Source of the DNA: a virus
Length of the DNA stretch: 64,000 nucleotides
Virus record (IMG/VR): IMGVR_UViG_3300044960_000439
Direction: 5' to 3' (one strand)
Position 1 is the first letter of the stretch. Each line of letters begins with the position of its first letter. Made by a program: the position numbers and the translations under genes. Positions 4,581-60,907 of this stretch are shown piece after piece. The notes under the pieces were generated by a model. The model was not told where the DNA came from. It saw only the letters and a list, made by a program, of their open reading frames with translations, and made no database searches.

Positions 4581-4598
4581 GGCATAAATAAGTGGAAG
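4581..4598 (+). promoter_or_regulatory. Phage promoter-like motif GGCATAAATAAGTGGAAG
   Basis: Same motif recurs at 41729, 56100, 56743, 57861, 58722, 61544 and 61975, always + strand and upstream of genes or RNAs. Confidence 0.65.
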
Positions 4599-40910: not shown

Positions 40911-40984
40911 GGGCCAGTAGCTCAGCCGGTCAGAGTACCTGCCTTACACGCAGGGGGTCGCAGGTTCGAGTCCTGCCTGGCCCA
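40911..40984 (+). tRNA. tRNA-Val(UAC)
   Basis: Acceptor GGGCCAG/CTGGCCC; anticodon arm CCTGC-CTTACAC-GCAGG; T loop GGTTCGAGTCC; CCA not encoded. Confidence 0.95.
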
Positions 40985-41024
40985 CTCGATGTTTAAAATG
41001 AAATCCTCAACGTTAGAGTTAAAG

Positions 41025-41276
41025 ATGATAATAAAGGTAAATAGCCTTACTCATAACTTAATGATTTGTTATGCTAGTTCTGATGAACCAATAGCTGCTT
41101 TAATCTTTTACGACAAAGAAGAAACTTCAATCCGTTTATTCGGTAAAACGACTAAACTTAATGAAGGAATAGCTGTTTATTTAAACCAGGAAAACACTAT
41201 CTGTAATGTTCGTTCTGACGCGATTAAAAGACTAGAGATAGGAAGTGTCAGAAATGAACTTATGTTAATAAGATAA
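41025..41276 (+). CDS. Small hypothetical protein (small-paralogue family)
   Basis: In frame with listed 40989; LFGKTTKL.EGI.V shared with 41395..41658. Confidence 0.65.
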   Translation: MIIKVNSLTHNLMICYASSDEPIAALIFYDKEETSIRLFGKTTKLNEGIAVYLNQENTICNVRSDAIKRLEIGSVRNELMLIR

Positions 41277-41394
41277 AGAAAAAGCTAAAATCCAATAAAT
41301 ATGGGTCTACATATCTGAGGAGGTGAAGGCTTTGATTTCGAGTTCTATCTAGTCTACTAGATATTTAAATTGAAATCCTCAACTGGAGAAATAA

Positions 41395-41658
41395 ATGCAA
41401 GTAAAGTTAATCATACATGACCCTAACGTATTCGGTTTTCGTACTGCTTTTAATACATCAATAGCTTATTTAAACTACAAGCTTGCAGATAGAACCACAA
41501 CTAGTCTATTTGGCAAAACAACTAAACTTAGTGAAGGGATAACTGTTTAGTTAAATCAGGAAAAGGTTAAACGTAGTTTGAATTATGATATAACCAGAAT
41601 AGTAGAGATAGAAAGTTTTAAAGACAGACTTACGTTAATAAGACAAAGAAAAAGCTAA
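41395..41658 (+). pseudogene. Paralogue of 41025..41276 with an in-frame amber stop
   Basis: MQVKLII..SLFGKTTKLSEGITV*LNQEK..; TAG at 41548 aligns with TAT (Tyr) in the sister gene. Confidence 0.7.
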
Positions 41659-41728
41659 TTCTAGTAATAGACAGGCAAGTATTCTAAGCAGAGATAAGGT
41701 AAAAATGTAAACTAAACGCATAATTTGC

Positions 41729-41746
41729 GGAATAAATATCTGGGAG
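41729..41746 (+). promoter_or_regulatory. Phage promoter-like motif GGAATAAATATCTGGGAG
   Basis: Preceded by AATTTGC exactly like the 4581 copy; ends 9 nt before the orphan CRISPR repeat. Confidence 0.6.
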
Positions 41747-41755
41747 TCCTTTCGC

Positions 41756-41791
41756 GTTGCAATGCCTGCGAAGAGGCTTGGTTTCTTCGAC
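41756..41791 (+). CRISPR. Orphan CRISPR repeat (36 nt) GTTGCAATGCCTGCGAAGAGGCTTGGTTTCTTCGAC
   Basis: The last 33 nt match repeat 45505..45537 except for 2 positions; 3' stem CGAAGA/TCTTCG followed by AC. Confidence 0.8.
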
Positions 41792-41840
41792 ATTTGTAAG
41801 GACTTTTGGTAGCTACATTTTAATCCCGGGAGGAAAAGCT

Positions 41841-42551
41841 ATGAGGTACCTATCTCTCCTTATTGGCCTGCTTTCTATTTGTATTACCATTACTTCTCAA
41901 GCACAAAATCTCAAAACACTTAATGACCCAAATGTTGAAGTAAGGATTTTGTGTGATGGTGTACAAATTACTAATACGAGTCCTGCAGAAGTCAGTGTAT
42001 TTGATTGGACTGTAGTAATTGGACAGAGAACTGATGATCATTATCCTCAGCCGTTGTGTTGTGCTTATATTTTAGATGGTAAATACGATCCAGTTATCAC
42101 TTACACTTCATTTGGAACTCCAAAGCAAGGTCTTCGCGAGAACGTTAGAGGCGGTGGTTTCTATTTTCATTGCACAATCCCACCACGTAATTCTGTCGTA
42201 CTAAGGGCTCTAGTACTTGGTTTCGGTAATGCTCACGCTATTACAAATATTCCGAAAAACGCAGTTTATAAACGAGTTAATAGAAATCTTGGTAGAAAAC
42301 ATGCTTTTGGAATCTATGCTTGCATGTCTACAATTCAAACTGCAATAGATAAGGGAGTCACTAAAGAAGAAGATTTGAAATCGACCAAAGAGATTGGTAT
42401 CCTGCTATTAGCTTTTTACGAAGAAAAATTTCCAGAATATGCGAGAATACGAGCTGTCATTTCAGAAGACTTTTATAAACAGCTAAGAGATCATTTCAGT
42501 GATATGCAACGCACAGGAGAACAACTATATAAAACAGTCTTTTGCGAGTAA
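41841..42551 (+). CDS. Exported hypothetical protein
   Basis: GGGAGG SD before ATG 41841; signal peptide MRYLSLLIGLLSICITITSQA; the listed TTG start 41757 lies inside the CRISPR repeat. Confidence 0.75.
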   Translation: MRYLSLLIGLLSICITITSQAQNLKTLNDPNVEVRILCDGVQITNTSPAEVSVFDWTVVIGQRTDDHYPQPLCCAYILDGKYDPVITYTSFGTPKQGLRENVRGGGFYFHCTIPPRNSVVLRALVLGFGNAHAITNIPKNAVYKRVNRNLGRKHAFGIYACMSTIQTAIDKGVTKEEDLKSTKEIGILLLAFYEEKFPEYARIRAVISEDFYKQLRDHFSDMQRTGEQLYKTVFCE

Positions 42552-42663
42552 TTAACTCTAATAAGATTTGCAAGATTAACAAGTCCAAGGCGAATTTGGA
42601 CGGTCAATTATCCTTCCACAGTTGCAAAAATATAGTCTATGACACTGTCGTGTACCACAAACG

Positions 42664-42775
42664 CCGGTGGTAATGTTGAGCTACCGGAAACGCTATGGGC
42701 GGGCGGTCCGCCCATGTAATCACCAGCCAGAGTGCTGGCGGCGAGCCGGCTTGGCCGAGACGACCGGAGGAGTGT
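42664..42775 (+). other. GC-rich multi-hairpin leader
   Basis: CCGGTGG/CTACCGG, ATGGGCGG/CCGCCCAT and CCAGC/GCTGG stems before the GGAGG SD of 42780. Confidence 0.45.
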
Positions 42776-42779
42776 TGCT

Positions 42780-43544
42780 ATGTCTGCTATTGTTAAGGTT
42801 ACCGTTCAGCGTACCAAGGATTGGGTGCGCGCACGGCGATTGGAAACCGGGGAAAACGTCCCGGAAACAATCGAAGTTGAGGTCCTAGCAGATCAGTTAC
42901 CTCGCGAAGTCCGGGAGCTACTGATCGAAGCCGGGGGCGGATCATACCCCGACGAATTCGCTGGCGATATCCGGCAGGACTACCTATGGATGTATCGGTC
43001 CGACTTGCGGTACGGGCGTGTACCGATCATCGTAGATGCCGACCAACCGACGCCGGAGTCAATAGCCGCGGCGATTCTGACTGCCGACAAGGAACGGCGT
43101 CGGATGAAGATGGAAGTTGAGGAAAAGATTCGTCAGCGTGAAGAACGAGAGCGTGCACTTGCCGAAGAATGGGCGCGGCTGCCCCTGGAGCAGCGGGCCA
43201 GTGCGGCTGGCGTGTGCGTTGCCCGCGACCCCGAGACGGGTACCATGAGCGCCTATGGGGTGCAATTGTACGATATCTCGGCGCTGAAGAAGTACGTACC
43301 AGAGGCGTTGGACGAGGCGGTCCTGGAGGTGGAACGCCTTCGCGAAATCGAGCGTGGCAGAGAGGCGATCAAGCATCGCGCTCTGCTGGCTGAATTACTC
43401 GGCTTAGTACCAGAAGACGCGCTGCGGCATGCCGTTAAACGTGCCGCCATTGATGGTATCGCCGGGAAACCGGCGTCAATTGAAGAAGTGCGGAAACAAG
43501 TCCATCAAGCCTGCCAGGCTGGCGGCGTCCGCATAAGTATTTAA
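42780..43544 (+). CDS. GC-rich hypothetical protein with coiled-coil
   Basis: GGAGG SD before ATG 42780, in frame with listed 42732; codon style distinct from the AT-rich backbone. Confidence 0.75.
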   Translation: MSAIVKVTVQRTKDWVRARRLETGENVPETIEVEVLADQLPREVRELLIEAGGGSYPDEFAGDIRQDYLWMYRSDLRYGRVPIIVDADQPTPESIAAAILTADKERRRMKMEVEEKIRQREERERALAEEWARLPLEQRASAAGVCVARDPETGTMSAYGVQLYDISALKKYVPEALDEAVLEVERLREIERGREAIKHRALLAELLGLVPEDALRHAVKRAAIDGIAGKPASIEEVRKQVHQACQAGGVRISI

Positions 43545-43564
43545 CAAACGTTGCGTTTATTACA

Positions 43565-43596
43565 GGCGGCCGGTGTGTACTCAAGCACCGGCCGCC
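43565..43596 (+). other. Perfect 11-bp hairpin between 42780..43544 and the Cas12m-like gene
   Basis: GGCGGCCGGTG-tgtactcaag-CACCGGCCGCC; no U tract. Confidence 0.6.
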
Positions 43597-43717
43597 GTTG
43601 TATCGGAAATCAGCGCTTCCTACTTCGCCCTGCAGTAAGAGATGCTCTAACGAATGTTGTCTATTCTAGTGGAACTGAGGGTTCTTTATCTCTAGGAATG
43701 GGAATAGGAGGACTATC

Positions 43718-45379
43718 ACGCCATTCGGCAGAATAGCCGGCCCAACTATTGTCTATAAATATGGGGCGAAAAAACCAACTACAAACGCAGAAGCGATTTT
43801 GGACCAGTTGCGCAAAGCACATCAGTACCGCAACAAGCTTGTCGAAATAGAGCTTCAACGACGCAAACTCGTCGAAGAAGCTGTCAAGAATATCGAAAGT
43901 GATGTCCGCCATTTGACGGACAAGTTAGAACAGCTTGAACTGGACATTGACTATACGGTTAGAAAAATCAGCAACCACAAACAGAAGAATCAGACTCGAA
44001 CTATCCCTGTCGAATTGAAAGAACGTCTCAAATCATTGAAAACTCAGTACAGAGAAGCGCTGCGGCGTATGAAAAAGGCCAAGAAAGCCGCGTACGCTCG
44101 TCCAGAAACGCAGGAGGCATTGAATCGAATTGAAGGAAAAGTGAGGGCTGAACACAAAAAAGCCCGTAATTTGTGTGGGCTCTATTGGGGTACTTACTGC
44201 CACGTAGAGCAGATCATCCCATGTATCAGAAAAGGACCGCCGCCGAAATTCCGCCGTTTCGACGGCAGCGGTGTATTAGCGGTCCAGCTTCAAAAGGGAG
44301 AAAACATTGCACGGTTGGAGAGCGGCGAAGACCGTCGCATCCGCATTGAGGGCTGCGGCAAGCGACGCATATTATGGCTGCGCATCGGATCGGACGAGAA
44401 CCGCGATCCGATCTGGGCGACGATTCCATTTACTTATCATCGTGAAATTCCAAGCGATGCGAAAATCAAGTGGGTGAAAGTCAAAGCCCAACGCATTGCA
44501 TGCCAAACTGAGTGGGAGGTGCTCTTTACGCTGGAACGGAGTTCCGGCTGGAAAAAGCCCGACCTAGCTCAGGATGGAGCAGTTGCCATCGACATCGGTT
44601 GGCGCAATTTCGATGATCGCATTCGCGTAGCATACTGGATTGGTAGTGACGGACGCGAAGGCGAAATTGCACTGCCCCATAACATGGTTGGCAAGGCGCT
44701 TGAACAAGTTGAGCATTTACGATCATTGCGAGACAAGAATTTTAACGAGATTAAGCAGCAACTGCTTGACGCTATCGGTGCGCTCCAGATTCCGGAGTGG
44801 CTAAAGGAGGTTACGAAAACGCTGCATCAGTGGCGTAGTCAAGGAAGACTGGCGGCGCTGGCCATTCGATGGCGGCAACAGCGATTCGATGGTGACAATG
44901 ATATATTTGCTCTACTAGAAACGTGGCGGGTCCGCGACAAGCACCTTTACGAATGGGAGGCACATCTCCGCGTGAAGGCTATTCGTTGCCGCAACGATTA
45001 TTTTGCCAACGTCGTAGCCGATTTGTCTCGTCGTTACAAGACAGCGGTTGTTGAGGATTTTGACTTGCGGAACGTTACACAGGTCGATCCGATACAAACG
45101 GAACAAATTGGCGATGGACGTCAGCTCTATCGTGCACACATCGCCGCGGCCGGTGGCTTACGGCAGATGATTAAGAATCGCTTTGCCGAAACGCAGATCG
45201 TGTCTGCCGTGCTCACAACGCAGACCTGCACGGAGTGCGGCGAAATCATGAACTTCGACGCGGCCGAGAGCGTATTTAGCAAATGTTCACATTGTGGCCA
45301 TGCGTTTGATCAAGACCGCGCAGCGGCGATTAACCTGATGCGACGATACGAGGAAAGGCTAGTTGCTGCGAACAGCTAG
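43718..45379 (+). CDS. cas12m: Type V-U1/V-M (Cas12m-like) TnpB-derived RuvC effector, ~553 aa, apparent ACG start
   Basis: IVYKYGAKKP..LDQLRKAHQYRNKLVEIE, LYWGTY, KFRRFDGSGVLAVQLQ, PIWATIPF..HREIP, RuvC-I VAIDIGWR, QWRS.GRLAAL..RW, RuvC-II VVEDFDLR, Zn finger CTECG..CSHCG, RuvC-III FDQDRAAAINL; CRISPR repeats downstream. Frame is open from 43679; the listed TTG 43799 cuts off conserved residues. Confidence 0.85.
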   Translation, partial: TPFGRIAGPTIVYKYGAKKPTTNAEAILDQLRKAHQYRNKLVEIELQRRKLVEEAVKNIESDVRHLTDKLEQLELDIDYTVRKISNHKQKNQTRTIPVELKERLKSLKTQYREALRRMKKAKKAAYARPETQEALNRIEGKVRAEHKKARNLCGLYWGTYCHVEQIIPCIRKGPPPKFRRFDGSGVLAVQLQKGENIARLESGEDRRIRIEGCGKRRILWLRIGSDENRDPIWATIPFTYHREIPSDAKIKWVKVKAQRIACQTEWEVLFTLERSSGWKKPDLAQDGAVAIDIGWRNFDDRIRVAYWIGSDGREGEIALPHNMVGKALEQVEHLRSLRDKNFNEIKQQLLDAIGALQIPEWLKEVTKTLHQWRSQGRLAALAIRWRQQRFDGDNDIFALLETWRVRDKHLYEWEAHLRVKAIRCRNDYFANVVADLSRRYKTAVVEDFDLRNVTQVDPIQTEQIGDGRQLYRAHIAAAGGLRQMIKNRFAETQIVSAVLTTQTCTECGEIMNFDAAESVFSKCSHCGHAFDQDRAAAINLMRRYEERLVAANS

Positions 45380-45501
45380 GTACGATAATATAGATATTAA
45401 TCGCTCGTAATATACAAGTTGAAACAACGTAATAGATGTCACAACGACTGCTACCAAAAAGAGGTCCAACATGTTATAAAGAACATAGTTAGATGAACGC
45501 T
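45380..45501 (+). promoter_or_regulatory. Probable CRISPR leader
   Basis: AT-rich non-coding 122 nt between effector stop and first repeat; contains ATGTT/AACAT inverted repeat. Confidence 0.5.
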
Positions 45502-45598
45502 CGTGCAATGCCTGCGAAGAGGCTTTATTTCTTCGACAGTGAAATGGATGATCAGAAGGGAACGTGTAATGCCTACGGAGAGGCTTCATTTCTTCGAC
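45502..45598 (+). CRISPR. CRISPR mini-array: two 36-nt repeats and one 25-nt spacer
   Basis: R1 45502-45537 CGTGCAATGCCTGCGAAGAGGCTTTATTTCTTCGAC; spacer AGTGAAATGGATGATCAGAAGGGAA; R2 45563-45598 CGTGTAATGCCTACGGAGAGGCTTCATTTCTTCGAC (4 mismatches to R1). Confidence 0.85.
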
Positions 45599-45612
45599 GA
45601 GGCGTCAGTACT

Positions 45613-45685
45613 GGGCCGGTAGCTCAGTGGTGAGAGCGGGCGCCTTATAAGCGTCAGGTCGCAGGTTCAATTCCTGCCCGGCCTA
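45613..45685 (+). tRNA. tRNA-Ile(UAU)
   Basis: Acceptor GGGCCGG/CCGGCCT; anticodon arm GGCGC-CTTATAA-GCGTC; T loop GGTTCAATTCC. Confidence 0.92.
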
Positions 45686-45719
45686 CTGTTTCATCCCCTT
45701 CCCCATATAGGAGGACAAT

Positions 45720-46466
45720 ATGACGAAGGTACGAAACATTGCTCTGTTCATTTTGATTTTCTCTCTTGGATTCGTAGGTTGTAAGTCTAAGGACGTTGTA
45801 GGACAGAAATATATTGATCCCTATGACATGGCTATTGATTATGTATACGAAGATGGAATTCTTAAAATTATCAATAATTCAAACAAACCTGTAGAGCTTG
45901 CTACACCAACGGTGTTTTTGGGATTCCCCTCTAAAGAGGGTGAAAATATGTTTTTCCTCCTTCTTAAGGAGGGAACGCACTCATTGACCCTTTATGATTT
46001 TGGTGGCGAGGACTACGTTGAGGATATTTATCCTTCAAACGATAATTCCAAAGTTAAAGAGATCTTGGTTGTTGACTTGAAGCCCAAGGAAGTTAGGGAA
46101 TATCCCGTAATTGCCGTTGCTATTCCTACCGAGGGATTTAGTTATCTGGTTGGAGACGGTACTTATGCTGTCCTTCCAGTAATCGGACACCACGAAAAGC
46201 GTTGGATCACCTTTATTGCTCTGTCATTCCTGGCAGAAGTATTGGATAAAGACAACTCTGATCTATACAAGAAAGCATTGGCTCTTGCTTTGCGATTCAT
46301 TTGGGTAGGACCAAATGATGACACTGAATTGAAAAGTATTGAAAAAGACTTGTTGCAAGAAGGCTGGTCAGAAGATGTTATCTCAGTTGCCTTTTCTGTC
46401 TTTGGAATGGCAAGGGAGAAAGCCAGGAAACATTTGAAGGATATTACGAAGATTAAAAGAATCTGA
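45720..46466 (+). CDS. Predicted lipoprotein
   Basis: AGGAGG SD; signal peptide with lipobox GFVG-C. Confidence 0.75.
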   Translation: MTKVRNIALFILIFSLGFVGCKSKDVVGQKYIDPYDMAIDYVYEDGILKIINNSNKPVELATPTVFLGFPSKEGENMFFLLLKEGTHSLTLYDFGGEDYVEDIYPSNDNSKVKEILVVDLKPKEVREYPVIAVAIPTEGFSYLVGDGTYAVLPVIGHHEKRWITFIALSFLAEVLDKDNSDLYKKALALALRFIWVGPNDDTELKSIEKDLLQEGWSEDVISVAFSVFGMAREKARKHLKDITKIKRI

Positions 46467-46497
46467 AGGATTCATACCCCCCCCCAAGGAGCAAAAT

Positions 46498-47592
46498 ATG
46501 AATAATGACATTACTATCAAGGCGGCGAAATCTATTCTTGAGTACAATATCATTCTTGGGTGTCAAGATCAGGAAGACAAACAAGGTTATATTTGGCCAT
46601 GTTTCATTGGACCGACTGGCAGCGGGAAGACTGCCAGGGCTGAGAAGTTGGCCAAGGAGTTGGGTTTGAAGCAGCACAAATTGCTGCTTCAGACGATGAA
46701 TCCAGAAGAAGTTGGTGGGATTCCTCGTCCCGTTGGTGACAACCTTCATTGGTTCCTTGATTCTTGGGCTGAAGATAATAGCTGTATTATCTTGGATGAG
46801 CTTGATAAGCCGGATCGTGAGCACTGGTCCACGATCCTTTCTTTGTTGACTGACCGTAAATTGCGTCATAAGCAACTAAATAGTACTGTCTTTGTGGCTG
46901 CTATGCAGCCTGTCGATGTTGAAATGTTCTTGTATGAAGAAACTGGCAGGGCACTCAGTGCCCGGCTTTGTTTTCTTCCCATTAATGAGAATGACTCATT
47001 TGAATTCGTTAGTAAGAAACATGGAAGGAAAAACTTGTTCCATCATGTTGGAGAAATTAAACTTCCAGTTTTGGAAGACGTGAAGGCCCGGCAATTGGAT
47101 TGGCTCGCTGGCTTTGTGGATTCTATGAATCCGGAAGCCTCGGTCTTGAATTTGGTGGTGAATGGGATCGTTCACCACAGGCATAGGGCCAAAGTCTTTG
47201 AATGGCTTGAAGCCAGGTTGGTTACTGAACTTGAGCCTGAAAGATTACTCAAGATTCTCGGCAGGAAGCCTGAATTGCATGATGAACTGGATATTGCTAC
47301 TGTCAATTTGCTCTGGCAGAATGCCAGTACTCTCTACGGTTGGACTGAAGAGATTTTAGAGAAGGTTTTGACCAGGATTTCTTGTGAAGTTGAACGCGAG
47401 CAGGCGTTCAATGTAATGAGAAATATGGTTGATAATTTGAAAAAGTATCCGGAAGATCAGGATGGCTATAAACCATTTGTTGAACCATTGACTTATGAAC
47501 AATGGTGTCGAGTTGTGGATAAAGTTTCCAACAATATTGTAAAGTACTTTACCGCAAAGGAGAATAAAAATGGACAATCTAAACAAGGATAG
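46498..47592 (+). CDS. MoxR-like / AAA_5-type AAA+ ATPase (module 3)
   Basis: GPTGSGKT, IILDELDKP, FVAAMQP, ALSARL; close paralogue of module 2. Confidence 0.88.
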   Translation: MNNDITIKAAKSILEYNIILGCQDQEDKQGYIWPCFIGPTGSGKTARAEKLAKELGLKQHKLLLQTMNPEEVGGIPRPVGDNLHWFLDSWAEDNSCIILDELDKPDREHWSTILSLLTDRKLRHKQLNSTVFVAAMQPVDVEMFLYEETGRALSARLCFLPINENDSFEFVSKKHGRKNLFHHVGEIKLPVLEDVKARQLDWLAGFVDSMNPEASVLNLVVNGIVHHRHRAKVFEWLEARLVTELEPERLLKILGRKPELHDELDIATVNLLWQNASTLYGWTEEILEKVLTRISCEVEREQAFNVMRNMVDNLKKYPEDQDGYKPFVEPLTYEQWCRVVDKVSNNIVKYFTAKENKNGQSKQG

Positions 47593-48766
47593 TCCATATT
47601 ATTACTATAATTTGTTTCCTGTTGAACTCAGTGATTGGATGAAGAAATATATTAATATTCAATGGAATAACGATTTGCCATCGGCAGCTGTAAAGCTGTC
47701 GGCTGATAAAGGTTATATCATTGAATTAAACAAAGAGTTTATGGGGAAGCTCTCTGACAATTGTAAGAAGAAAGTAATTCTGCATGAAATTAGTCACGTC
47801 ATTCGTGGCGATTGTCTGACGATAAAAAAGTGTGAGCGTCCCCTTGATTACAACATAGCCAGTGATGCTCACATCAACACCCAAATTGGTGATCTGACTG
47901 AATTAGAGGAGGAGGCTGGTACTAAAGTTGTTACTTACGAAAGGATTCGTGAAGAAGATTGGCCGGAAGGGATGCCTTCCACTAAAGTAATTTATGACCT
48001 CCTTAATAAGAAGAGGAAACAGCAATCTTCTAAGGGGAAGGAAAGTTCTTCTGAAGAAGGAGGTGACGACAATAATTGTGGTACTGATAAAAAGTTCATT
48101 CTTTCAGGTGACGTTAAAGGTACTGAAGGTGATTTTGAGATTTGCATTGATAAACATACAGAAGCAATAGCAACTGTTCCTAAAGCATTAGGTGCGGGTA
48201 TTAATATCAGATTTGATAATTTTGATAGTAAAGTTTATGAAGTGCGACCGAAGCCAGAACCCAAAATATTGACGGCTTTGAAGAAATTGCTTCGCTATGT
48301 AGTACCAAAATATGGTACTACGAAAGTGAAGGTAAAGACTTGGACGAGGGAAAATCGCTCTAATGATTTGTTTCGTGGTTACATGCGTAAACGTAAGGTG
48401 AAAGTATGCCTTGCTGTTGATGTTAGTGGCAGCATGCGTGAGTATGTCCCAAACATACTCGGCATTGCTGCTGATATGAAGCATAAATTAGATACGGAGA
48501 TTATTGTTTGGGCAGACTATGCCCAGAAAATTCGTGGTGTTGATGATAAATGGGATGTTGGCTGGGGAACCGACGTAAACCCAGCAATTGAATTGATTAA
48601 CAAAATTAATCCTGATATTTCTGTAATTGTTACTGACGGTGATTTTTATCGTAATATTGAGAAAATACCAAAGACACCAGTGCTTTGGGTGCTTTATGGT
48701 GATTTCAGTTGCTCACACAAATTGGTTAAGAAGGCGGTGGATCAAATCATCAAAATTTCAGCATAA
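47570..48766 (+). CDS. DUF2201-like metallopeptidase + VWA protein (module 3)
   Basis: Intact ILHEISH (HExxH), YNIASDAHIN, MIDAS VDVSGSM, GWGTD, VTDG. Confidence 0.87.
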   Translation: MDNLNKDSPYYYYNLFPVELSDWMKKYINIQWNNDLPSAAVKLSADKGYIIELNKEFMGKLSDNCKKKVILHEISHVIRGDCLTIKKCERPLDYNIASDAHINTQIGDLTELEEEAGTKVVTYERIREEDWPEGMPSTKVIYDLLNKKRKQQSSKGKESSSEEGGDDNNCGTDKKFILSGDVKGTEGDFEICIDKHTEAIATVPKALGAGINIRFDNFDSKVYEVRPKPEPKILTALKKLLRYVVPKYGTTKVKVKTWTRENRSNDLFRGYMRKRKVKVCLAVDVSGSMREYVPNILGIAADMKHKLDTEIIVWADYAQKIRGVDDKWDVGWGTDVNPAIELINKINPDISVIVTDGDFYRNIEKIPKTPVLWVLYGDFSCSHKLVKKAVDQIIKISA

Positions 48767-48785
48767 TTTGTTTTAAATATTGAGT

Positions 48786-48858
48786 GGGGCTGTAGCTCAA
48801 AGGATAGAGCAAGGGATTTCTAATCCCTAGGTTGCAGGTTCGAGTCCTGCCAGCCCTA
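48786..48858 (+). tRNA. tRNA-Arg(UCU)
   Basis: Acceptor GGGGCTG/CAGCCCT; anticodon arm AGGGA-TTTCTAA-TCCCT; GGTTCGAGTCC. Confidence 0.95.
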
Positions 48859-48894
48859 GTAACGTTTGAATGCCACACTATCAGAGGTGAAAAA

Positions 48895-49149
48895 ATGAGA
48901 ATAATGAGAATAAAATGCGATATTTATGTATCCTATTCGTCCTTCTTTACCAACAATTACTCAGAGATACTTTATGAGGAACATGATATTGTTGAAATAA
49001 TTGGTAAATATAAACAAAAAGAGCTTGACGCATTTGTAGTTAATGCTGAACCAGACCATAACATATCTAGATATCCGTGTTCATCCGAAGTGCATAAAAT
49101 ATTTTATTTTCAGGATAGAATTGGCGTGGCACTTGAACAAAATAATTAA
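48895..49149 (+). CDS. Small hypothetical protein (first gene of right-hand array)
   Basis: GAGGTG SD before ATG 48895; the listed 48832 start overlaps the tRNA. Confidence 0.65.
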   Translation: MRIMRIKCDIYVSYSSFFTNNYSEILYEEHDIVEIIGKYKQKELDAFVVNAEPDHNISRYPCSSEVHKIFYFQDRIGVALEQNN

Positions 49150-49184
49150 ATAGACGAAGGAGACTAACCGCCTGGAAGGATATT

Positions 49185-49436
49185 ATGAAAGTTAAAGATG
49201 ACGGATACAGTTCGATTTGGGACGACAAGTCACGGAAAATAATGTTCGTTACGCATAAGTGTAAGATTCAATTACTTGGTACATTTACAACTAAAGTCAA
49301 TAACATAACTATAAAAGAATCTGGTAATATCTCGCTAAGTAATTGGTATATTAATTACACTGGTATAAAATTCGTACATTGTGTGAACGATAAAAACGAT
49401 GAATATGAAATTATTGTAGCTGTTGAGGATAAATAA
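49185..49436 (+). CDS. Small beta-rich paralogue, array member
   Basis: Shared pattern MK(V/I)..W....I.L.G....V.I.E.G.IS....V.F...Y.I.VAV. Confidence 0.75.
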   Translation: MKVKDDGYSSIWDDKSRKIMFVTHKCKIQLLGTFTTKVNNITIKESGNISLSNWYINYTGIKFVHCVNDKNDEYEIIVAVEDK

Positions 49437-49555
49437 TCTAATAGAATTCATCAATTTATCTCTAAAAGATGAGATAAATTTGATAGCTGTATCCGAAAAG
49501 GAGGAACAATGAAAATCAAATAGATAAATAATGGCAACTACCAAAGAGGACAGTT

Positions 49556-49816
49556 ATGAAAGTTAAATATGCCGGCGATTCGATTTGGGTCTACAAATCA
49601 GGGAAAATAATGTCCTTTGAATATAATCGTAATATTCATTTATTTGGTGCAACTACAACAGATGCTGCTAAGCCCAGTAGTGTAATCATACACGAATCCG
49701 GTCGTATCTCACGATACAAATCGAATTTTAATTACGTTTCTTTCATAAAATTCGTGTGTCGTTGGAAAGTCCAAAACTGTAAATATGAAATTAATGTAGC
49801 TGTTGGGGATGAATAA
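49556..49816 (+). CDS. Small beta-rich paralogue, array member
   Basis: Same family pattern. Confidence 0.75.
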   Translation: MKVKYAGDSIWVYKSGKIMSFEYNRNIHLFGATTTDAAKPSSVIIHESGRISRYKSNFNYVSFIKFVCRWKVQNCKYEINVAVGDE

Positions 49817-49888
49817 TCTAATAGAATTCATCAATTTATCTCTAAAAGATGAAATAAATCTGATAACTGTATCTGAAAAGGAGGAATA

Positions 49889-50149
49889 ATGAAAATCAAA
49901 TATGATAGCTCATGGTTATTCGCGTGGCGTACTGATTCGTTTAAAGAAGTTCTTAAGGTTGATCTGAACAACATAAAATTACTTGGTGCTCCTATAGAAG
50001 CTTTTAGCAAAATAAGTATTGTGACTGTACTAAGTACAGGTTACGTATACCCACATACAACATCTCATGGGATACATATATCTTTAGTACGGTTTTACAA
50101 ACATGATACGGATAACTATGCAGTTAAAGCAGTGACTAAACATGAATGA
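49889..50149 (+). CDS. Small beta-rich paralogue, array member
   Basis: Same family pattern; AAAGGAGG SD. Confidence 0.75.
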   Translation: MKIKYDSSWLFAWRTDSFKEVLKVDLNNIKLLGAPIEAFSKISIVTVLSTGYVYPHTTSHGIHISLVRFYKHDTDNYAVKAVTKHE

Positions 50150-50211
50150 CTTAGTATTAATAATTAGTATTAATAATGAAATTGAGTAAAATATGATGAG
50201 CATGCCGGAGG

Positions 50212-50472
50212 GTGGCTATGAAAATCAAAGCTGACTGGTGTTGGCATGATATCTTGCGACATGTAATTATTTCTGATAATTCGAATGTTGTGAGGTTACT
50301 TGGCGCACCTGCGAGACTTATTTCAACAGAAACAAAGTCAGTATTAGTAGACGATGCGGGTTTAGTTTCATGTGAAAACATACAGTGTCGTTATAGTTCG
50401 TTTGTCAGGTTTATTCATTGGGATACAAACAACTTAAGTAAATACGCCCTGGAAGCAGTTATTAAGCAATAA
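50212..50472 (+). CDS. Small beta-rich paralogue, array member
   Basis: Same family pattern. Confidence 0.75.
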   Translation: MAMKIKADWCWHDILRHVIISDNSNVVRLLGAPARLISTETKSVLVDDAGLVSCENIQCRYSSFVRFIHWDTNNLSKYALEAVIKQ

Positions 50473-50543
50473 TGACTGCGTATAATTTCATTGACATTTA
50501 TTACGATATGAGATGATTTAATGACTATCTAAGGAAGGAAGCT

Positions 50544-50801
50544 ATGAAAATTAGATATGATAAGGCATTCGTATTTTGTGATCCAGCATTGAGATCAATT
50601 ATTATTAGTGATTCAACTAATTTGAAATTGTGTGGAGAATCTGTAAAAGCGTATGATGCCTACAATCTTGCAACTATAGATGAAACTAATCGTATTTCAC
50701 CTTATAGGAAGTATGTGTTATCATATTCCAGTACTTTTGTCGCGTTTAAGCACGATATATATAACGAATATACGATTGAAGTATCAGTTAAACCTGAGTA
50801 A
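50544..50801 (+). CDS. Small beta-rich paralogue, array member
   Basis: Same family pattern; CTATCTAAGGAAGG RBS. Confidence 0.75.
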   Translation: MKIRYDKAFVFCDPALRSIIISDSTNLKLCGESVKAYDAYNLATIDETNRISPYRKYVLSYSSTFVAFKHDIYNEYTIEVSVKPE

Positions 50802-50859
50802 GTTGATATATCTATTGAGATAAGATAGTGGGATAACTTCTATCTAAGAAAGGAAAACT

Positions 50860-51111
50860 ATGAAAGTCATGTGTAGTAAGTTGTCTACCATATGGATTGA
50901 TAAACTACACAAGTCGATTTTCGACGCTGGAGCTGATAGCATAATATTATGCAGTAAATACGTAGAAGATGCTGTTAAAATGAATGCAATAGTAATTCCG
51001 GAGGTTGGTAAACTTTACCAACATGGAGTGTGTCTTAGACATAGTTCCCTAATTAGGTATGACTACGTTGGCACACATGAATTTGAACTTACGGTAGCGA
51101 TTAAGAACTAG
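50860..51111 (+). CDS. Small beta-rich paralogue, array member
   Basis: Same family pattern; 31-nt RBS/start identical to that of 51180. Confidence 0.75.
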   Translation: MKVMCSKLSTIWIDKLHKSIFDAGADSIILCSKYVEDAVKMNAIVIPEVGKLYQHGVCLRHSSLIRYDYVGTHEFELTVAIKN

Positions 51112-51179
51112 GTAACTATGTAATTTTACTAATATCCATTGTGATAAGAAATGACCTAGCTATCTAAGAAAGGAAAACT

Positions 51180-51437
51180 ATGAAAGTCATATATGAGGAC
51201 TTGCATGAGTCATGGCTTGACAAATCGCAAGGGTCGGTCATTGGCAAAGCATTAGGTGAAGTGATGTTATTCGGTGCGCGAAGAGAATATCAGAATACGT
51301 TGAACGAGGTGAAAATCCCAGAAATCAGCAATATTTCACAATATGTAAATTATCTCAAATTTGATTCCATGATTACGTTTAGGTGTTTCGGATCAGAGGA
51401 AGCTGTACTTAAGGCAGCAATCAAAGTAAGTAGTTAG
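51180..51437 (+). CDS. Small beta-rich paralogue, array member
   Basis: Same family pattern. Confidence 0.75.
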   Translation: MKVIYEDLHESWLDKSQGSVIGKALGEVMLFGARREYQNTLNEVKIPEISNISQYVNYLKFDSMITFRCFGSEEAVLKAAIKVSS

Positions 51438-51488
51438 TAGTAATCTTCTGTTTGAAGAATTTGGAACTAATATCAGTAAAAGGTTGCC

Positions 51489-51722
51489 GTGAAAATAACC
51501 CCGCGCAACGATAGTTATGGTTCCTCTTTGTATGATGAATCAGGAAAAACTGTATTCTATACAGATGGGACAGACGGAGGTACGATCTGTCTTGTTGGTA
51601 AAGATAATATGAGGGAACCTAGTACTTGGTGGTTTTATCAAGATAAATACAAAAACAGTAGCAAGTATTCCTACGGAAATATTGCTTTTGTAGCAGAGTT
51701 TATTCGGGTAACTATAACATAG
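51489..51722 (+). CDS. Small protein, near-identical to 55749..55973
   Basis: CLVGKDNMREP.TWWFYQDKYKNSS.YSYGNI.FV.EFIRVTIT shared. Confidence 0.75.
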   Translation: MKITPRNDSYGSSLYDESGKTVFYTDGTDGGTICLVGKDNMREPSTWWFYQDKYKNSSKYSYGNIAFVAEFIRVTIT

Positions 51723-51790
51723 TATTAGAAGAATTAAAACGAGGACTATTAAGTACTTTGTCAAGAATGTCTCACTCAAAGGAGAAATAT

Positions 51791-52054
51791 ATGATCGACG
51801 AAATCCCTACTAATTCAGTTGCATATGTTTATGCTTTTACTGAGAAAGACGGCAAGGCCATTTTCAGAGGCGTTGCCGCAGATTGGACTAATAAGACCAG
51901 TCCAGTTTATATATGGGATGGTCAGTCTTGGGTAAATATGGGACTTATAGTAGATGATCTTACTTCTGAGAGTAAACTTGATCTATGTTCATTGCTAGAT
52001 GCCCGCAAGGAAGACATCTGGGAAATCAGCGAGCCGACCGATTTATTTGATTAA
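51791..52054 (+). CDS. Small hypothetical protein
   Basis: AAGGAG SD before ATG 51791, in frame with listed 51758. Confidence 0.65.
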   Translation: MIDEIPTNSVAYVYAFTEKDGKAIFRGVAADWTNKTSPVYIWDGQSWVNMGLIVDDLTSESKLDLCSLLDARKEDIWEISEPTDLFD

Positions 52055-52071
52055 TACTTATTAGTAACTAC

Positions 52072-52144
52072 GGGGTCGTAGCTCAGCGGGTAGAGCATCG
52101 GACTTTTAATCCGAAGGTCATGGGTTCGAGTCCCATCGGCCTCA
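52072..52144 (+). tRNA. tRNA-Lys(UUU)
   Basis: Acceptor GGGGTCG/CGGCCTC; anticodon arm TCGGA-CTTTTAA-TCCGA; GGTTCGAGTCC. Confidence 0.95.
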
Positions 52145-52149
52145 CAGAA

Positions 52150-59836: not shown

Positions 59837-60907
59837 ATGAAAATCTCTAGCATGCATCTCACTAATGTTGGTCCAATTAAGGATGCTCAAGTTAATTTTG
59901 GCGATTTAACGATATTATTAGGACCTAATGATCTAGGTAAAAGCATTTTTTTACAGCTATTTAGGCTAGCACTTGATTATGGATACATTAATGATGAATT
60001 AACAAAGTATGGAATAGATTGGAATGGTTCTTTATCTCTGTTTCTTGAATCGTATCTAGGAACTGGATTACAGAGCGTTTGGCAAAATGATAGTAGTATT
60101 AAACTAAATGGTAAGCCAATAAATTTGAAGCAAATGGTACAAAAGCCAAGCAAAGCAATAGAACCCACTGTATTTTATATTCCCGCCCAGCGGCTTTTGA
60201 TGTTCACCCACAACTGGATTAAACCTTTCACAGAATTTAGATATATGGATCCGTTTGCCATTAAAGATTTTAGCGAAACGCTCCGTAGGGCAGTAGATCA
60301 TAGAATGATGAAGAAGAGAAATTATTTGAAGCCTTGGCTTTTGAAGGCAATTAGTAAGGATATTTTTGGAAATTTAAATTTAGATATTGCTATATATTCT
60401 TTTAGGAAAAGCATTGTGCTTGGAGATAGTAAGAAGGATACTGTCATTCCTATTGATAATTGCTCTATAGGACAAAGAGCTTTTGTTCCTCTGCTTCTAG
60501 GAATTCAATGGTTATTGCATGAGGCAGCTGATAAGAAAGGTAATTCAATTAAGTGGGTAATTATTGAAGAACCTGAATTAGGTTTACAATTATGCACTCA
60601 TTCTTCTCTCTTTTCTTCTATCTTTCATACATTATTTCTATTGATTACTGGGCTGCTTCAAAAGGGCTATAACGTTTGCATTAGTACACATTCTGAGCAG
60701 GTATTTGCTTTTGCTTGGTTAGCTCGTTACTTGAAGTCTTGCAGCAAATATCCGTCAGGATTGATTACCTGGCTTCAACCAAATAATTCAACGGAATTAG
60801 AGGATTCAGTTAAATATTTATGTAAAAGAAATGTTATGGTCTATGAATTTGACAATAGCGGGCTGGCTGCGGATATTTCACAAGAATATTGTCATAGTAT
60901 GATGTAA
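59837..60907 (+). CDS. ABC-type (AAA_15/AAA_21-like) ATPase
   Basis: N-terminal MKISSMHLTNVGPI, Walker A GPNDLGKS, YIPAQR, signature-like SIGQR, Walker B IIEEPELGL, H-loop STHSE. Confidence 0.82.
   Translation: MKISSMHLTNVGPIKDAQVNFGDLTILLGPNDLGKSIFLQLFRLALDYGYINDELTKYGIDWNGSLSLFLESYLGTGLQSVWQNDSSIKLNGKPINLKQMVQKPSKAIEPTVFYIPAQRLLMFTHNWIKPFTEFRYMDPFAIKDFSETLRRAVDHRMMKKRNYLKPWLLKAISKDIFGNLNLDIAIYSFRKSIVLGDSKKDTVIPIDNCSIGQRAFVPLLLGIQWLLHEAADKKGNSIKWVIIEEPELGLQLCTHSSLFSSIFHTLFLLITGLLQKGYNVCISTHSEQVFAFAWLARYLKSCSKYPSGLITWLQPNNSTELEDSVKYLCKRNVMVYEFDNSGLAADISQEYCHSMM

Follow-up and report, generated by a model that had tools for sequence, protein, structure and literature searches.

The cas12m gene on a 64,000-nt stretch of viral DNA (IMG/VR record IMGVR_UViG_3300044960_000439; the whole stretch is called the window below) carries ACG at the codon where all of its relatives have ATG or methionine. 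We judge, with moderate confidence, that this is a lineage-specific ATG>ACG knock-down, which would make the gene a strong hypomorph or a fresh near-null allele and not a conserved regulatory device. An earlier note on this DNA had left open a start that throttles a potentially toxic effector, a knock-down mutation and a sequencing error; the knock-down is the best supported of these, given the state of the codon in the relatives. The gene and the start-region, hairpin and array features described below all read on the + strand.

The start region of cas12m and its ancestral state

The cas12m frame is closed upstream by a TGA (43676..43678, from direct reading of the sequence) and is open from 43679 to its stop codon at 45377-45379. 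The list of open reading frames shows no ATG, GTG or TTG in this frame between 43679 and the TTG at 43799. The Shine-Dalgarno (SD) site AGGAGG (43706..43711) is followed by the six nucleotides ACTATC and then, from 43718, by ACG CCA TTC GGC, where translation would give T-P-F-G-R-I-A-G-P-T-I-V-Y-K-Y-G. The spacing of 6 nt between SD and ACG falls within the preferred (modal) spacing of the window, 6-7 nt; the conserved N-terminus is thus provided with an SD at working distance and with no canonical start codon. Counted from the ACG (43718..43720), the full-length coding sequence has 553 codons and a stop (43718..45379). The first canonical in-frame start, TTG (43799..43801), has no good SD ahead of it and is the codon at which gene callers begin a 526-aa product (P0122, P0123). 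Another candidate near-cognate codon for initiation, ATC (43715..43717), belongs to the ancestral spacer (relatives have ...AATC ATG) and is just 3 nt away from the SD; none of the 25 GGAGG-start pairs of the window has this spacing. Across the window, 81 SD motifs ahead of long frames are accompanied by a canonical start; apart from that of cas12m, those without one are all weaker motifs ahead of shorter frames, and no convincing non-canonical start was found among them. The segment 59738-59755 was considered as a second non-canonical start and rejected: it is the end of the preceding gene, and the true start is the ATG at 59838.

A search of 5.8 billion proteins yielded 253 relatives, the best five of which are 86-93% identical and 553-556 aa long. 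The closest proteins, P0002 and P0124 (93-94% identical, 553 aa), start with MPFGR. Each of 26 aligned homologues begins with M(P/A)FG or MFG, in several cases MPFG, exactly opposite the T-P-F-G of the window, and P22, Y28 and G29 (alignment numbering), downstream of this motif, are invariant. At the DNA level, ATG stands at the ACG codon behind an SD-like site in 15 of the 15 related loci that carry the motif. The start region of one such locus, L004, reads AGGAGGACTAATC ATG GCA, and that of the window AGGAGGACTA-TC ACG CCA, with an SD-to-start spacer that is 1 nt shorter in the window. Because SD and ACG have homologous counterparts in the AGGAGG...ATG of L004 and the GGGGG...ATG of a second related locus, L005, sequence comparison indicates that their arrangement is not due to chance. 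The homologue starts, the 15 ATG loci and the L004 alignment together indicate that the SD and the start codon were inherited and that the ACG is derived by a T>C change at 43719, by which the ancestral start codon was lost. No start other than ATG or Met was found among the 26 proteins and 15 loci, and the ACG is private to the lineage of the window. Short protein fragments of near-identical strains were not found by the search, the IMG/VR relatives of the protein are only ~40% identical, and megablast of 41500-46000 against a phage collection gave no match.

These results bear out the reading of the region in the earlier note. Its coordinates for the open frame (43679), the TTG (43799), the AGGAGG (43706-43711) and the ACG (43718) were all found to be correct on re-reading, and its placement of the N-terminus at 43718 agrees with the Met or ATG aligned there in 26/26 homologues and 15/15 loci. 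The note had accepted that homologues beginning at the LDQL position, near the TTG, would overturn this placement; among the aligned homologues none begins there.

The encoded protein and selection on its N-terminus

The protein of the window is a real Cas12m, the effector of type V-M systems. The gene is an ordinary member of its family, and it is the carrier that is unusual. The solved Cas12m 23vw_A matches with an E-value of 1.8e-68 over residues 13-542, that is, over most of the length; other solved chains match at about 1e-21 to 1e-22 (8hhl, 8hio) and 1.2e-19 (8pm4), and the Cas12f1-like TNB zinc ribbon PF07282 at 4.9e-08. An AlphaFold (AF2) model of the 553-aa protein, built on 80 sequences with a pLDDT of 91.2, aligns over 533 residues with GoCas12m (8pm4; Z 26.7, rmsd 2.6 A) and over 528 residues with Cas12m2 (8hhl; Z 26.2), and its Z of 18 against TnpB is well below these Cas12m values. 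The predicted fold has the WED domain, coiled-coil REC, RuvC and zinc ribbon of Cas12m. A D-E-D triad is found in RuvC (D292, E446, D531/D533), matching the published clades 3 and 4, which have DED/NED triads (PMC10442227), and a C-terminal CxxC...CxxC ribbon is formed by C504, C507, C523 and C526. Orthologues with D-E-D have been reported to bind DNA without cutting it (PMC11013384). The likeness to the type V-M effectors Cas12m2 (8hhl), GoCas12m (8pm4) and 23vw extends to sequence, fold, zinc ribbon and an adjacent array of the family repeat. In alignment A1 the first D of the RuvC triad and the E vary among relatives (P0012, P0014, P0016, P0022 and others), with N in place of the D and A, D, G or K in place of the E, whereas neither the DQD motif nor any of the four cysteines of the zinc ribbon varies.

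In the model, codons 10-17 (TIVYKYGA, 43745..43768) form the first beta-strand, in which Y13 and G16 are nearly invariant. This strand falls in the segment that corresponds, in the alignment, to the N-terminal part of the solved Cas12m chains, where the WED domain is located, and residue 7 of the model aligns with residue 1 of 8pm4 and 8hhl. A long helix is predicted at residues 24-59. The very N-terminus has a function in Cas12m2, where the WED-domain residue Met4 stacks against the first base pair of the guide-target heteroduplex (PMC10442227). A protein started at the TTG (residue 28) would, according to the model, lose strand 10-17 and begin inside helix 24-59.

Measured against L004 and L005, codons 2-27 have a dN/dS of 0.08-0.11 and the rest of the gene 0.07-0.09. 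Because the two regions do not differ, codons 2-27 have been coding throughout the history of the lineage, and the residues upstream of the TTG, which had been described from the letters as conserved-looking, are conserved by this measure. For the window branch in a three-taxon comparison, values derived from the pairwise ones are dN ~0.048, dS ~0.54 and omega ~0.09, and such an omega leaves only a small fraction of the branch for neutral drift. By a rough estimate, a 1.66-kb frame without function would acquire a stop or a frameshift after about 1% neutral divergence. Only seven amino-acid changes are confined to the window, a count comparable to that of the sisters, and M1T is the only one of the seven on a family-conserved column. 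No further disabling lesion and no relaxed selection were found in the 553-codon frame, and in this respect the gene does not resemble a start-loss pseudogene. No damage apart from the changed start was seen in the gene, which leaves two cases: the mutation is very recent, or it is tolerated and the gene still works. A start lost very recently would give the same picture.

Initiation at the ACG codon and competing readings

Through a T>C transition at 43719 the ancestral ATG became ACG, and the ribosome binding site was left intact at its preferred spacing. Because the start codon has changed, the full-length 553-aa protein would be made only by near-cognate initiation, either at the ACG, with which fMet-tRNA would pair through two of three bases, or, less likely, at the ATC one codon upstream. 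The product would keep its N-terminal Met. Measurements in other bacteria suggest an output of roughly 0.1-10% of the ATG rate, and the amount of protein is probably cut to a trickle. In Escherichia coli, initiation from AUA, AUC, AUU and CUG is 1-2% of that from AUG, and from the codons outside these four near-cognates and AUG, GUG and UUG, among them ACG, it is 0.1-1%; ACG-sfGFP was recovered at full length with an N-terminal Met (10.1101/063800). The change of ATG to ACG rendered a kanamycin-resistance gene "defective" and non-functional under selection, and made the start of GFP "cryptic" (10.1101/263657; PMC13067763). It is because ACG is weak in E. coli and defective in reporters that the allele is read as a hypomorph or near-null. 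These engineered reporters and the 64-codon survey involve the same substitution as cas12m, with initiation that is reduced and non-zero and with an N-terminal Met; however, they are laboratory constructs in E. coli, and the host, temperature and IF3 stringency of the window may differ. In Staphylococcus aureus, AUA and AUU starts that follow an extended SD work at 10-30% of AUG (PMC13009471), so that output in the host of the window may exceed the level expected from E. coli. One metatranscriptome run was compared with the region of the window, and no reads were obtained from it.

Start codons are known to be turned into near-cognates by point mutation, and there is a precedent in phages. The tape-measure gene (tmp) of mycobacteriophage Corndog has ACG at the position of the ATG in its sister phages Dylan and Catdawg, and peptides place the start of its translation at or before the ACG; the protein is essential and its amount is normal (PMC4351075). 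Like Corndog tmp, cas12m has a single lineage-specific ACG at the ATG of its relatives and lacks a canonical start ahead of the conserved N-terminus. Unlike tmp, for which peptides are available, it is an accessory gene with a strong SD. Regulated near-cognate starts are represented by the AUU of E. coli infC and, in S. aureus, by the AUA of infC, ccpN and citZ and the AUU of cvfC1 (PMC13009471). They share with cas12m a weak codon behind a strong or extended SD, a proper spacing and an expectation of lower output, but their codons are AUN near-cognates conserved across species, whereas the ACG of cas12m has a mismatch at the middle base and occurs in no relative. The knock-down is favoured by the state of the array, which is down to one short spacer as against 4-12 repeats in relatives; the absence of any other decay, the retention of a perfect SD and the omega of ~0.09 count against it. 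If the gene is dead, its death must have been very recent.

The same observations bear on the reading in which the ACG is a working and selected start, the AGGAGG at 6 nt ensuring a low or very low dose of a DNA-binding effector that suits the phage through a smaller burden, less off-target silencing or less self-targeting. We regard this as possible but rather unlikely. The gene is intact, with an omega of ~0.09 and a preserved SD, Corndog tmp provides a working ACG position in a phage, and non-canonical starts behind extended SDs serve as attenuators in Firmicutes. Furthermore, near-identical cassettes covering the start region are present on contigs from two other studies (X5, 99.3% identity; X6, 98.1%), which may have either ACG or ATG at this codon. 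Against this, the ACG is private to one lineage, with 0 non-ATG starts among the 26 proteins and 15 loci, so that conservation of the non-canonical codon among orthologues, the hallmark of infC-type regulated starts, is absent; no other gene of the window has such a start, and the partner array has shrunk. Since the ACG occurs in no relative, nothing points to an evolved throttle. The throttle suggested in the earlier note agrees with a gene free of decay and is not supported by conservation. That the molecule really has ATG and the C at 43719 is a sequencing or assembly error, as the note had also considered, is very improbable. The difference is a single base and the comparison was one between contigs, but an independent 10,577-nt contig (mean depth 16.5), obtained by k-mer assembly from a run of the hot-spring sample that is the probable source, has the same base and 0 differences from the window over the 4.3 kb of 41500-45800. 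In addition, all sampled words of 43300-44300 are present in two runs of one hot-spring sample, and the exact TTG-started 526-aa product is found on two JGI and two Logan contigs. Because the independent contig agrees, an assembly error is unlikely, the agreement being one between contigs and compatible with a minority T allele.

The 526-aa product of the TTG at 43799 is most likely not the functional protein. The TTG is the first canonical in-frame start and is used in both the JGI and the Logan gene calls, but starting there would remove 27 residues conserved at an omega of ~0.1, take away strand 10-17 with the nearly invariant Y13 and G16, and cut into helix 24-59; no homologue begins at this position, and a good SD is lacking. 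There is accordingly very little probability that the annotated product is the functional one. The protein collection in which the 526-aa form occurs has no entry for the ACG-started translation, which shows that gene callers shortened the protein. More unusual routes, namely an ATC at 43688 behind GAGGG, or an upstream ORF from the ATG at 43698 combined with frameshift, bypass or re-initiation, are highly unlikely. The GAGGG (43677-43681) does lie 6 nt before the ATC, the ORF from 43698, in another frame, overlaps the SD and ends at 43736, and bypass has been proposed as an alternative for Corndog tmp (PMC4351075). However, an N-terminal extension is found in no homologue, the ATG at 43698 is not spaced usably from an SD, and neither a slippery site nor a signal for bypass was seen; the upstream ORF with a frameshift was rejected for want of any supporting signal.

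The main practical consequence is that databases carry this Cas12m shortened by 27 residues (526 aa; P0122, P0123) and without its first beta-strand, and that cloning of this Cas12m should make use of the 553-aa form, with Met as residue 1. The ACG allele is a natural test of the amount of Cas12m that a phage requires. Should it prove to be maintained in several strains, it would be one of the rare instances of ACG initiation in a bacterial virus, and if it is also working and selected, it would be a natural ACG-initiated phage gene with a translational throttle on a Cas effector. If it is not maintained, it would mark the beginning of the loss of a CRISPR module that was acquired recently and whose array is already down to one spacer.

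The cassette, its array and the carrier

Unlike known Cas12m loci, that of the window combines a low-GC phage-like contig (~35% GC), an island of 50-60% GC (about 42550-45600), a one-spacer array and a mutated start codon. The phage-family proteins of the contig include a T4-type RNA ligase (6e-58), phage ATPases and an HNH endonuclease. The mini CRISPR array (45504..45599) consists of two repeats of ~35-36 nt, the second 83% like the first, and one spacer of 25-26 nt; a solitary copy of the repeat lies 3.7 kb upstream (41758..41792). The arrays of relatives have 4-12 repeats with a period of 72-74, and the array of the window is therefore reduced. The core of its repeat is also present in arrays of 4-12 units beside homologues that are only 40% identical, in keeping with a family repeat adjacent to cas12m. 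L005 has the same order of upstream gene, cas12m and array, with an ATG start. The idea that the start mutation was an escape from self-targeting finds no support, because no second site matching the 25-nt spacer was found in the window when up to 3 mismatches were allowed.

The upstream gene (42732-43544) is a 270-aa ORF of 59% GC that travels with cas12m and matches nothing in Pfam or PHROG; in L004 a homologue (74.5%) is found 1.5 kb upstream of cas12m, and the 3' end and the following hairpin are 92% identical in L005. This GC-rich hairpin (43565..43596), with an 11-bp stem and no T-tract, is conserved in L005 and gave no terminator call in the scan; a scan for sigma-70 promoters found none between 43300 and 43900. 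The element GGCATAAATAA recurs before genes, with exact copies at 4581, 56100, 56743 and 58722 and near copies at 41729 and 61544, and may be a phage promoter element. Because the sequence from the upstream hairpin to cas12m contains no copy (43545 to 43717 was covered), cas12m may depend on read-through from 41729. The SD is paired with an upstream GUUCU(U/C) in the predicted folds of window 43680-43714, L004 7963-7990 and L005 270-312; this possible SD-occluding stem is no better than in shuffled sequence (z -1.6, 0.2 and 0.0, respectively).

Four tRNA genes are found within 40911-52145 (Val-UAC, Ile-UAU, Arg-UCU and Lys-UUU). All of them read A-ending codons, and the tRNA-Ile gene begins 14 nt after the last CRISPR repeat. 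In X5, the repeat of the array occurs in repeat-spacer-repeat joins with GC-rich spacers of 36-39 nt at a depth of ~98, and it is also present on a 73-kb contig in X1, one of the probable source runs; a full array with this repeat must therefore be present in another organism of the same community, probably one of higher GC, which could be a donor or host. Depth in X5 is ~80 for the phage backbone flanks as against ~13 for the cas12m cassette, and in the dominant contig of X5 about 600 other letters replace 42026-42691. A join of 45198 to 45457 across the 3' end of cas12m occurs in both X5 and X6. The cassette seems to be variable or to be present in only part of the phage population. The array at L005 1997-2210, beside the 87%-identical relative, is irregular as well, with periods of 58, 72 and 54 and spacers of ~18-36 nt. 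The downstream flank of this array has only 42-46% GC, so that the relative, too, may be carried by a mobile element.
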